A DNA stretch of 11,476 nt from a virus (Duplodnaviria; Heunggongvirae; Uroviricota; Caudoviricetes): IMG/VR virus record IMGVR_UViG_2713897055_000005; one strand, 5' to 3'. The position numbers and the translations under genes are program-made. The notes under the pieces are model-generated. The model worked only from the letters and a program-made list of their open reading frames with translations. It was not told where the DNA came from and did not search any database. Below are positions 993 to 3,740 of this stretch, one piece after another. Positions within the stretch are counted from its first letter, which is position 1. Each line of letters begins with the position of its first letter.

Positions 993-1208
993 ATGTACCA
1001 GATGGAAAAAATCACAACAGGTGTGTCATACACCACGTCAGCGGTGGGAACGGGCTACTGGTTCCTGCAGTTGCTGGACAGGGTTTCCCCGTCTCAGTGG
1101 GCGGCAATAGGCGTGCTGGGGAGTCTGCTGTTTGGTCTGCTGACATATCTGACGAACCTGTATTTCAAAATTAAAGAAGACCGGCGTAAGGCGGCGCGGG
1201 GAGAGTAG
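993..1208 (+). CDS. Class II holin, phage 21 S21-like pinholin, with dual-start motif (Met1 and Met4)
   Basis: 71 aa. [51 protein letters not shown] matches the S21 holin family that I recall. Start MYQM gives two candidate initiation codons, as in holin/antiholin pairs. Ribosome-binding site GGGAGACGGGG upstream. Confidence 0.9.
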
Positions 1209-1586: not shown

Positions 1587-2120
1587 ATGAACACAAAAAT
1601 AAAATACGGCCTGTCGGCTGCCGTTCTGGCGTTGATTGCCGCAGGGGCTTCTGCGCCTGAAATCCTCGACCAGTTTCTTGACGAAAAAGAAGGTAACCAC
1701 ACTACGGCATACCGTGATGGTGCGGGGATCTGGACCATCTGCCGTGGAGCCACCCGGGTGGATGGTAAGCCTGTTATTCCTGGCATGAAGCTGTCGAAGG
1801 GGAAATGCGACCGGGTTAACGCCATTGAGCGTGATAAGGCGCTGGCATGGGTGGAGAAAAACATCAAAGTGCCACTGACTGAACCCCAGAAAGCGGGTAT
1901 TGCGTCATTCTGTCCTTACAACATTGGCCCGGGTAAGTGTTTCCCGTCGACGTTTTATAAACGAATTAATGCAGGAGATCGCAGGGGAGCGTGTGAGGCG
2001 CTTCGCTGGTGGATTAAGGACGGTGGCAGAGACTGCCGTATCCGCTCAAATAACTGTTATGGTCAGGTATCCCGTCGTGACCAGGAGAGCGCGCTGGCGT
2101 GCTGGGGAATCGACAGATAA
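1587..2120 (+). CDS. SAR-type endolysin, T4-lysozyme-like muramidase (GH24 family)
   Basis: 177 aa. N-terminal weakly hydrophobic Gly/Ala/Ser-rich segment (GLSAAVLALIAAGASAPE) is typical of signal-anchor-release domains. Catalytic spacing E-x8-D-x5-T is present in EGNHTTAYRDGAGIWT. Pairing with a pinholin is the usual arrangement. Confidence 0.9.
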   Translation: MNTKIKYGLSAAVLALIAAGASAPEILDQFLDEKEGNHTTAYRDGAGIWTICRGATRVDGKPVIPGMKLSKGKCDRVNAIERDKALAWVEKNIKVPLTEPQKAGIASFCPYNIGPGKCFPSTFYKRINAGDRRGACEALRWWIKDGGRDCRIRSNNCYGQVSRRDQESALACWGIDR

Positions 2121-2210
2121 GCCGAATATTTTGCTGAAAAATGACGTTGGCCAACGCGGACGGATAACACGAAATCCTGCGAACTGGCAAAACCTAAGTG
2201 AATAAAAGTA

Positions 2211-2250
2211 AAAACCCCGTTTGTTGGCAGCAAGCGGGGTTTTGTGTTTC
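2211..2250 (+). terminator. Rho-independent terminator, possibly bidirectional
   Basis: 13-bp stem AAAACCCCGTTTG / CAAGCGGGGTTTT (one G-U pair) with a 7-nt loop, followed by TTTTGTGTTT; an A-run precedes it. It lies between the endolysin stop and the next ORF. Confidence 0.6.
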
Positions 2251-2276
2251 TGACCTTGGATAAGGCAAGGGAGAAC

Positions 2277-2459
2277 ATGGAAAAGTATAAACGAATTCTG
2301 TTGAGGTTGACTATGAAAAACGGCCTTGAACTGAAAGCGCCAGTAACTGATGACATCAGCAGAGCACAGGCTTTTGCTATTAAGTGGGTGGCGGTCGGTA
2401 TCGCTGTGTCTCCGATGCTGTATGGGCTGGCAAAACTGGTCATTGCGTTGAAAGCGTGA
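2277..2459 (+). CDS. Small protein with C-terminal transmembrane helix (60 aa)
   Basis: ATG 2277 with GGGAGA upstream. The track ORF 2244..2459 begins at a GTG inside the terminator T-tract, so the internal ATG is preferred. C-terminus [29 protein letters not shown] is hydrophobic. Confidence 0.4.
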
Positions 2460-2473
2460 AGGGAGGATTAAAC

Positions 2474-2605
2474 ATGTCAGACAAACTCATAATGCTGGCG
2501 AAGATCCTCTGTGTAATCGTCGGCATTTCATTTTCACTAATGCTGGTTGCTCTTTTTCTTTCCATGGGCTGGATGATGTTATCTTCGTCGGGGATGCTGG
2601 GGTGA
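2474..2605 (+). CDS. Small hydrophobic membrane peptide (43 aa), translationally coupled to Rz
   Basis: Strong ribosome-binding site GGGAGGA at 2461-2467, ATG 2474. Translation [43 protein letters not shown]. Its stop TGA 2603-2605 overlaps the Rz GTG start at 2602 (GTGA). Confidence 0.4.
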
Positions 2606-3075
2606 GCATAAACCGAATGCTTTCCGCGTTTACCGTTATTCTGCTGGTGGTCTGTGGTGCGCTTAGTCTGGGGCTGAATCATTACCGCGATAACGCCATC
2701 ATCTACAAAGCGCAGCGTGATAAAAAAGCCAGAGAGCTGGAGCTGGCAAACGCAACCATTACTGATATGCAGGTGCGCCAGCGCGATGTTGCTGCGCTCG
2801 ATGCAAAATACTCGAGGGAATTAGCCGATGCGAGAGCTGAAAATGAAACTCTGCATGCTGATATTGCCGCTGGTCGTAAGCGCCTGCGGATCAACGCCAC
2901 CTGCTCCGGTACCGTGCGTGACGCCACCGGCACCTCCGGCGTGGATAATGCAACCGGCCCCCGACTGGCAGACACCGCTGAACGGGATTATTTCATCCTC
3001 AGAGAACGGTTGATGACAATGCAGAAGCAGCTGGAAGGGGCACAGGACTATATCCGCACTCAGTGCCTGAACTAA
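2602..3075 (+). CDS. Rz: Rz-like i-spanin (inner-membrane spanin subunit)
   Basis: [52 protein letters not shown]...[28 protein letters not shown] closely parallels lambda Rz as I recall it. N-terminal transmembrane segment present. Start is GTG 2602, or alternatively ATG 2617. Confidence 0.9.
2828..3013 (+). CDS. Rz1: Rz1-like o-spanin lipoprotein, embedded in the +1 frame of Rz
   Basis: 61 aa. Signal peptide with lipobox LVVSAC; proline-rich mature part [24 protein letters not shown] matches lambda Rz1. Lies entirely inside Rz in a different frame. Confidence 0.85.
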
Positions 3076-3413
3076 GTTTTGCGGATGCGCCGTATCGTCG
3101 CTGTATTCCCTCATTAACAGAGACCGCAGCCCGACAGGGAGACTCCTCTGCGCGAGTGTGCGGGGATAATCAAAAACGATACACACCGGGGTTTACCGCG
3201 TTAACGGAGCGCGGCGTTGTCCCCTCATGGTCGCTGGTCCGGTGCGATGGTGGAAGAAACCGGACGATGTGTTACCTCGCATGACCTGTTATGTCATGTG
3301 TCTGATTTGTGATTTAAGTCGGATAATTGTCGTTGCCATTAAGCAGAGGATTGATGGCCGACAGGGTGGCATTGTTAGAATAAGACTTATTCTTATCTGT
3401 GCCGGGAATGAAA

Positions 3414-3740
3414 ATGAAAAGAAATCTTCCGTTAATTATTTTGTTGTCTTCTCTGGTTATGGGCTGTACGCAACATAAAACAGATATGCCCCGACAGTTG
3501 GTTAAGGCATTACCACAATATCCGGCCTATGCAGCGGCAAATTATATAAAGGGACGGGTTGATGTGAAGTTTGATATTGGTGCTGATGGTACTGTCACCC
3601 GAATTGAGTTTATCCGTTCAGAGCCGCACCATCTGTTTGATGAGCAGGTTGTAAAGGCGATGGCAAAATGGCGATTTGAGAAGGACAGGCCGCGTAAAGG
3701 CGTGAAGAAAACGTTTATCTTTAGTCCTTCTGCACCCTGA
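3414..3740 (+). CDS. Lipoprotein with a TonB C-terminal-domain-like fold; moron-like accessory gene
   Basis: GGGA ribosome-binding site then ATG 3414 (alternative ATG 3408). Signal peptide MKRNLPLIILLSSLVMGC with a lipobox Cys. Mature part PQYPAYAAANYIKGRVDVKFDIGADGTVTRIEFIRSEP...FDEQVVKAMAKWRFE resembles the TonB/TolA C-terminal domain signature. From memory only; no profile search run. Confidence 0.65.
   Translation: MKRNLPLIILLSSLVMGCTQHKTDMPRQLVKALPQYPAYAAANYIKGRVDVKFDIGADGTVTRIEFIRSEPHHLFDEQVVKAMAKWRFEKDRPRKGVKKTFIFSPSAP

Follow-up and report, generated by a model that had tools for sequence, protein, structure and literature searches.

The DNA considered here is a window of 11,476 nucleotides (nt) from the Caudoviricetes record IMGVR_UViG_2713897055_000005. 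It covers the late region of a lambdoid prophage of Escherichia coli, and strain S19-141 matches it with 100% identity. Two small open reading frames, ORF1 and ORF2, sit between its lysozyme (endolysin, R) gene and Rz/Rz1 (Table 1). These flanking genes confirm the original prediction, made by a model from the sequence alone, that the ORFs lie inside the lysis cassette between endolysin and Rz. We consider it moderately probable that they are two independent genes of the phage late operon, each for a small single-pass inner-membrane protein, and that ORF1 is part of a movable unit.

ORF1 is clearly a real coding gene under selection. Its reading frame begins with the ATG at 2277, one base before the start that had been predicted (2278), and all 81 IMG/VR loci keep it intact. 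Variable sites are distributed 9/3/17 over the three codon positions, and the ratio of nonsynonymous to synonymous divergence (dN/dS) is 0.12 in frame versus 0.9 and 3.0 in the other frames. Across 29 nucleotide alleles, including those of Salmonella and E. marmotae, dN/dS is 0.16 for the whole gene and falls to 0.07 in the transmembrane codons 33–60. Conservation of the frame across homologous loci, which the original prediction required, thus holds for this gene. The predicted 60-amino-acid (aa) protein with a C-terminal transmembrane helix is also borne out: the best 19-residue Kyte-Doolittle window scores 1.9 (residues 38–56), and AlphaFold2 models a helix at residues 29–59, with low confidence (predicted local distance difference test score 68). 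Residues of this helix are under very strong constraint (Lys36-Trp37, Ser45-Pro46, Tyr49-Gly50 and Ala52-Lys53), which points to a specific interaction or activity of the helix in the membrane. An internal ATG at 2313 (Met13; Met18 in the paralogs described below) is preceded by GAGG or GGAGG in all members of the family. Because GAGG is kept even though the residues it encodes differ in the paralogs (Arg-Leu versus Glu-Val; L216, 499–693; L221, 2501–2695), a second start at Met13 giving a 48-aa form is possible, and several gene callers already predict that form.

ORF2 encodes a hydrophobic 43-aa peptide (Kyte-Doolittle 2.89) and has a strong ribosome-binding site, read from the sequence as AGGGAGGA at 6-nt spacing; both features had been predicted correctly. 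It differs from its E. marmotae homolog at 41 of 129 nt (11/8/22 by codon position), with dN/dS of 0.26 in frame compared with 2.27 and 2.98 in the other frames. When mutations are placed at random at equal density, 71% of trials acquire a stop codon; of the trials without one, just 0.14% show 17 or fewer amino acid changes. Among 1.84 billion proteins, a profile search returned 27 matches, all of them short and none of Rz length. On the E. marmotae dN/dS and this search we rejected the possibilities that ORF2 is non-coding or is a fossil of the Rz 5' end. ORF2 is, judged by these comparisons, a coding gene under purifying selection, and on the same grounds it is a young, narrow Escherichia family and not an Rz fragment. 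Selection (dN/dS 0.16 for ORF1 and 0.26 for ORF2) thus supports the prediction that both are real genes for small membrane proteins.

Within E. coli the constraint on ORF2 is weak: dN/dS is 0.6–0.75 and there is no third-position excess, the 5' 78 nt being near-invariant and the 3' 50 nt highly variable. This within-species test lacks power, because Rz, a bona fide gene, gives a dN/dS of 0.92 for its membrane anchor in the same data set. Frame conservation therefore holds for ORF2 only in part: purifying selection is evident relative to E. marmotae, but the frame is broken in 10 of 70 loci, by an 11-nt deletion in eight (L011 and seven alike) and a 1-nt insertion in two. The broken alleles imply that ORF2 is dispensable in at least some, possibly defective, prophages.

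Both ORFs had been placed below typical annotation thresholds, which proved incorrect. RefSeq lists them as hypothetical proteins (WP_051694738.1 for ORF1 and WP_024213850.1 for ORF2), the Sakai record includes an ORF2 homolog (ECs_1966), and both match PHROGs. The best match of ORF1 is phrog_1115 (E 2.5e-41, full-length), with further matches to phrog_4493 and phrog_3246; that of ORF2 is phrog_4906 (E 9.4e-21, full-length). These families carry no functional annotation. Searches of Pfam, NCBIfam, PADLOC and the sequences in PDB with the ORFs gave no match, and full-text literature searches (peptide sequences, lysis-cassette accessory genes) found no paper on either of them.

The stop codon of ORF2 was thought to overlap the start of Rz, so that the two would be tightly coupled. 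The stop (2603–2605) overlaps merely an alternative GTG at 2602, and the Prokaryotic Genome Annotation Pipeline (PGAP) starts Rz at the ATG at 2617, 11 nt after the stop. In the alignment, translation from the GTG is out of frame with Rz and stops immediately in the other common Rz allele; GTG 2602 was rejected as the Rz start since its in-frame status is not conserved in other alleles. Rz most likely starts, as far as the alleles indicate, at ATG 2617, and ORF2 and Rz would then not overlap. What stands of the claim is a spacing compatible with translational coupling. In the conserved layout the ORF2 stop falls within the Rz ribosome-binding site, 7–11 nt ahead of the Rz ATG, and ORF2 is directly 5' of Rz in 114 of the 157 IMG/VR places that contain the ORF2 core. 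Because its stop lies inside that site, translation of ORF2 would probably feed ribosomes to Rz, and the membrane anchor of Rz may also be a partner of the peptide. A functional link between ORF2 and Rz is thus plausible, though somewhat doubtful. In lambda, R and Rz overlap, and that link is lost once genes are inserted between them. In variant s6 (nine IMG/VR places), a DNA methyltransferase-like gene, not Rz, lies 7 nt after ORF2.

The 5' end of the ORF1 unit is a hairpin. A strong intrinsic terminator had been predicted at 2211–2250; the strong hairpin followed by UUUUGUGUUU is confirmed, but its extent is now 2211–2243. It has 15 pairs (free energy −21.7 kcal/mol, z −3.2), and no shuffle matched its fold. 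Flanked by an A-run 5' and a T-run 3', it looks like a two-way intrinsic terminator, and in one locus a terminator scan calls it on both strands. The form AAAACCCCG...CGGGGTTTT is found 33 to ~70 nt upstream of the ORF1-family gene. It precedes every such gene whose upstream DNA was read, whatever the neighboring genes, except that of Serratia (L220), where it was not seen and the upstream gap is only 34 nt. The Salmonella paralog hairpin has a compensated form, AAACGCCCG...CGGGCGTTT. Pairs of the inner stem covary, with UG, AU, GC and UA at pair 12-26 and UA, CG and UG at pair 14-24. Of the cells in the hairpin alignment 94.9% are paired, and the observed score was reached by 0 of 500 shuffles. 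The alignment thus shows a hairpin conserved with covariation. A small hairpin (CCTTG...CAAGG) considered as a mask of the ORF1 ribosome-binding site was dropped, as it is inconsistently kept and has no covariation in the alignment. A smaller second stem-loop is kept directly 3' of the endolysin gene, 5' of the main hairpin (2156–2181 in the window and 2857–2878 in L206); it reads GGCGGATAACACAAAATCCGCC in Salmonella and is imperfect in the window.

The relationships of the ORF1 family extend beyond the lysis cassette. A profile search adds members in Klebsiella and Serratia (54–58% identity) and a group of 64-aa paralogs (35–40%), all annotated as hypothetical; family loci were obtained by exact protein sequence look-ups. 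The Klebsiella and Serratia homologs are in a myovirus baseplate cluster, directly 5' of the sheath-initiator and Baseplate_J genes, and the Salmonella 64-aa paralogs are 3' of tail-fiber genes at the prophage end. One E. coli contig, L216, has two tandem units of hairpin and small tail-anchored protein, ORF1 and then a 64-aa paralog (159–192 and 405–431), with host hydrogenase genes adjoining. In every locus with listed neighbors the gene is in a phage late region and in the same orientation as its neighbors. Comparison of these loci shows that a unit composed of hairpin, ribosome-binding site and small protein with a C-terminal helix anchor moves between sites. It has entered late operons at the endolysin-Rz junction, in the baseplate cluster and 3' of tail-fiber genes.

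At 80% or more coverage, the stretch 2200–2625 is present in 1,008 of 5,426 complete E. coli genomes. It is also present in isolated phages whose recorded host is K-12 or E. coli C (the plaque-forming PhiR12_1, PV340549, and relatives, the PhiR12 series), and variants of the slot occur in several O157:H7 Sakai prophages. The variable slot, taken as the DNA from the conserved spacer after R (ending near 2206) to ORF2, was surveyed in the 157 places mentioned above. Hairpin and ORF1 are arranged as in the window in 98 of them. In 31 others the hairpin is followed by a 31-aa transmembrane ORF, ORF2, a 40-aa truncated ORF1 that starts in a GTGA overlap, a 28-aa ORF1-like peptide and Rz; two more places have the same four-ORF chain behind another insert. 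One example of the chain is L085 (1799–2420), and frame-shift fusions are predicted in some genomes (P0196, P0201, P0222). A Rha/Ant-like gene and a 37-aa transmembrane ORF occupy the slot in six places. At least six are of the Shiga toxin (Stx) phage type, with Ant, no ORF1, and a 49-aa ORF2 homolog whose ATG overlaps the ant stop. The match to phage P13374 is limited to query positions 1–107. The G+C content of the slot is 44–48%, versus 52–58% in R and Rz. The statement that canonical lambdoid cassettes are free of gaps is true of lambda but not in general, the R-Rz junction being variable and carrying ant in Stx phages.

In Salmonella the order is endolysin, hairpin, ORF1 and, after 10–19 nt, Rz, with no ORF2. 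This order follows three holin types (four cassettes with the holin read) and at least two endolysin types, and L210 shares it. In E. marmotae both ORFs follow a GH108 endolysin. ORF1 is found without ORF2 in Salmonella, Klebsiella and Serratia, and ORF2 without ORF1 in Stx phages. These loci show the two ORFs to be inherited independently, as judged from gene content, and not as an obligate pair. Independent inheritance argues against two of the functions originally suggested, a membrane exclusion pair and a toxin with a protein partner.

A sigma-70-like promoter candidate on the minus strand within the 5' end of ORF1 recurs at the homologous position in all seven loci scanned. Consensus scoring finds it in 11 of 11 family members, with 8–10 matches of 12. 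The −10 element reads TATACT except in Klebsiella and Serratia, where it is TATAAT. The −35 element is TAGTCA, TTGTCA or TGGTCA with a spacing of 18 nt; the paralogs have TTTACC or TTGGCC with a spacing of 16 nt. Transcription would start at or near the ORF1 ATG and stop at the hairpin and its U-run, giving an RNA complementary to the ORF1 leader with its ribosome-binding site. ORF1 codons 2–18 have a 3-4-fold lower synonymous divergence (dS 0.19 versus 0.66–0.84 elsewhere), which fits an overlapping element. These features tentatively suggest a cis-antisense RNA to the ORF1 leader. Rfam has no family at the site at either gathering or permissive thresholds; a sub-threshold rimP-leader match on the minus strand (2201–2275) is probably a generic terminator match.

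Table 1. Features of the window in and around the endolysin-Rz junction
Feature	Position	Strand	Evidence or remarks
3' end of sialate esterase gene, then DUF1378 and DUF826 genes			Ahead of the holin gene
P21-type class II holin	993–1208	+	Matches Phage_holin_2_1
YdfR/DUF1327 gene, 112 aa	1212–1550	+	
Lysozyme (P21-type endolysin)	1587–2120	+	Hydrophobic N-terminus
Conserved spacer after the endolysin gene	2121–2206	+	Stx-phage homology stops here; left edge of the variable slot
Inferred cis-antisense RNA, ~75 nt	2200–2277	−	Promoter candidate, two-way terminator, fold −20.3 kcal/mol, z −3.5
G+C-rich conserved hairpin, A-run before and T-run after	2211–2253 (stem 2211–2243)		5' end of the ORF1 unit
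ORF1, 60-aa protein, C-terminal transmembrane helix, basic N-terminus	2277–2459	+	dN/dS, PHROG, AlphaFold2
Sigma-70-like promoter candidate within the ORF1 5' end	2284–2313	−	−35 TAGTCA (2313–2308), 18-nt spacer, −10 TATACT (2289–2284)
ORF2, 43-aa single-pass hydrophobic protein	2474–2605	+	Ribosome-binding site AGGGAGGA; phrog_4906, dN/dS
Rz (inner-membrane spanin)	2617–3075	+	Pfam Phage_lysis, E 1.5e-48; start from PGAP
Rz1 (outer-membrane spanin), embedded in Rz	2828–3013	+	Pfam Rz1, E 1.8e-20
TonB-family gene, YlcI/YnfO gene, HNH endonuclease gene, terminase genes			3' of Rz

Crude consensus scans found no plus-strand promoter between the hairpin and ORF1, and no terminator was seen 3' of ORF1. 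In the Salmonella locus, a gene for a Q-type antiterminator is found upstream. With no plus-strand promoter found and a terminator ahead of the gene, expression in the lysogen appears unlikely, and expression confined to the late phase is probable. In lambdoid cassettes ORF1, then ORF2 and Rz, would be made only from the Q-antiterminated late transcript reading through the hairpin. In the lysogen the hairpin would stop stray transcription, and it would probably also end the ~75-nt antisense RNA begun at the promoter-like site within the ORF1 5' end. Such tight silencing argues that the ORF1 protein would be harmful if made early. Made late, it could disturb membrane energization in a toxin-like way and thereby tune the lysis that pinholin and membrane-tethered endolysin bring about, but a membrane-toxic or lysis-tuning role for ORF1 is at present a tentative proposal. 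The suggestion of a toxic small peptide with a partner survives in this altered form, with a likely cis-antisense RNA and not ORF2 as the partner of ORF1. Bolder, and somewhat less probable again, is the idea that hairpin and ORF1 represent small membrane toxins guarded by antisense RNA, a new family that travels in phage late operons, with two start forms like those of holin and antiholin, as a portable lysis-timing or membrane-depolarizing device.

Several observations weigh against the reading of two independent late-operon membrane-protein genes and the antisense control attached to it. The antisense promoter is only moderate, with four of six −35 matches and an 18-nt spacer, and its −10 element overlaps conserved Lys-Tyr codons, so that selection on the protein could explain its conservation. 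The candidate was not found in the 31- and 37-aa ORF variants behind the same hairpin. A table of Hfq-bound RNAs contains none at the one R-Rz slot placed in Sakai (prophage Sp4, 37-aa variant). The plus-strand fold of the hairpin is the better one in E. coli, where it is more stable through G-U pairs (about −21 versus −14 kcal/mol; −21.7 versus −14.6 kcal/mol in the window), and this favors a plus-strand function. A strong terminator within a baseplate operon is in turn hard to square with plus-strand termination unless the phage antiterminates. The weak constraint on ORF2 within E. coli and its broken frames, described above, count on the same side.

A rather unlikely alternative is that both are dedicated lysis regulators, ORF1 an antiholin- or holin-like timer or endolysin modulator with long and short forms and ORF2 a spanin accessory factor. 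ORF1 is directly 3' of the endolysin gene in every Escherichia and Salmonella lysis cassette read and directly 5' of Rz in most. Four or more types of holin and endolysin are represented among these cassettes. The internal Met, which has a ribosome-binding site to itself, is reminiscent of holin genes with dual starts, and ORF2 is found almost only ahead of Rz. P2 LysA and P1 LydB are accessory lysis-timing proteins encoded next to the endolysin. The Mu releasin gp25 is another (PMC9239132). Like these, the ORF1 and ORF2 products are small membrane proteins of the lysis cassette adjoining the endolysin gene, but they have no sequence relationship to them. ORF1 matches no DUF2730 (Pfam), and its membrane anchor is C-terminal, not N-terminal as in the releasin. 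ORF1 homologs also occur outside lysis cassettes, and those with the same hairpin in baseplate and tail-fiber regions, far from lysis genes, weaken the originally suggested lysis-timing role for ORF1, even if a dedicated one is still conceivable. Pfam and PHROGs give no holin or spanin match for either ORF1 (60 aa) or ORF2 (43 aa), and Rz and Rz1 are separately present, so that the cassette is already complete with its P21-type holin, lysozyme, Rz and Rz1. Moreover, lambda and many of its relatives lyse without these genes, and frame-shifted ORF2 variants persist. More improbable is a true type I toxin-antitoxin system, with ORF1 as toxin and the antisense RNA as antitoxin, that serves addiction or abortive infection and has no bearing on the lysis of the phage itself. 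The features that recall hok/sok, ldr/rdl, ibs/sib and zor/orz are a hydrophobic protein of at most 60 aa, a mobile and sometimes tandem unit, and a candidate cis-antisense RNA that would cover the leader and ribosome-binding site and end at an intrinsic terminator, here one that looks two-way. The promoter candidate for that RNA is present in 11 of 11 members, and prophage-borne type I systems are known, for example in C. difficile (PMC7699646). Unlike these systems, ORF1 has no toxin promoter that we could find and is embedded in late operons, in the orientation of its neighbors wherever these are listed. It matches no known type I toxin family (Pfam) and the site no antitoxin family (Rfam), its transmembrane helix is C-terminal behind a conserved basic N-terminal segment, and its antisense RNA is a candidate with a weak candidate promoter.

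The remaining explanations are much less probable. It is very unlikely that the prophage expresses the ORFs as membrane proteins for lysogenic conversion or superinfection exclusion. In favor of this, the proteins are small membrane proteins from a slot known to vary, the inserted DNA is lower in G+C than its flanks, and the TonB-family gene 3' of Rz looks like another accessory insertion. The extra DNA at a junction that is gap-free in lambda, the differing inserts and the lower G+C content all recall the lambdoid morons (Juhala et al. 2000, as cited in PMC4104026), of which ant in the Stx R-Rz slot is an example. A classic moron, however, carries both a promoter in front of it and a terminator behind it, and the lysogen expresses it, whereas ORF1 and ORF2 have a strong terminator upstream, none after them and no plus-strand promoter that was found, with only 10–19 nt between the gene and the next late gene; they have no PADLOC match and are not inherited together. 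Slightly less probable still is that ORF2 is a non-functional leftover, for instance a 5' piece of an earlier Rz allele, encoding its membrane anchor, that recombination left behind. Its within-species dN/dS without a third-position excess and the 10 frame-shifted loci of 70 would fit, and ORF2 resembles the lambda Rz anchor beyond shuffles (36 versus 21.5 ± 4.2, p ~0.007). This possibility is nevertheless largely refuted, on sequence grounds, by the selection seen against E. marmotae and the rarity of so few amino acid changes in random trials, and by the absence of Rz-length proteins among the profile matches. The Rz anchor control means that the within-E. coli signal says little, and the start codon and ribosome-binding site of ORF2 are kept in at least four upstream contexts.

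Two independent late-operon genes for small membrane proteins thus remain the preferred reading. ORF1 and ORF2 are not new to the databases, where they are hypothetical proteins, and the interpretation of them as a coupled pair is wrong. What is new is the mobility of ORF1, the hairpin that leads the unit (Serratia excepted) and its possible control by an antisense RNA. The ORFs are very common: roughly one complete E. coli genome in five carries the stretch, and there are related genes in Salmonella, Klebsiella and Serratia prophages. If ORF1 is membrane-active under the control of a terminator and an antisense RNA, it would represent a new family of small phage membrane effectors and would offer a handle on lysis timing, and hence on Shiga-toxin release, in lambdoid prophages. 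Even if the genes are dispensable, the view of the R-Rz junction is corrected: it is a recombination slot of interchangeable genes for small transmembrane proteins.

Other features of the window and of the related loci are as follows. The YdfR/DUF1327 gene between holin and endolysin, with a lower G+C content (42–47%), is a second break in the supposedly gap-free cassette. On the other side of Rz, the 113-aa ORF at 3399–3740 (+), annotated by PGAP as a TonB family protein, is also low in G+C (~40%); its N-terminus resembles a lipoprotein signal, and it is likely an accessory insertion. Rfam STnc100 matches (63–77 bits) lie 5' of the Salmonella lysis genes (L206, 1653–1860; L210, 1596–1804 and 1012–1140). 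Those in L206 are between a Q-type antiterminator gene and the holin gene and probably represent a late-promoter leader RNA. The 189 nt directly 3' of Rz (3076–3264) have 94.7% identity with the Sakai Sp10 region that encodes EcOnc11. EcOnc11 is the same RNA as HnrS; this small RNA of 66 nt depends on Hfq and acts as a repressor of hha (PMC13502914). HnrS (EcOnc10-12) was rejected as the RNA at the ORF1 site since it maps 3' of Rz, where the window probably carries an hnrS copy on the minus strand, with its core at ~3149–3200, antisense to the late genes.

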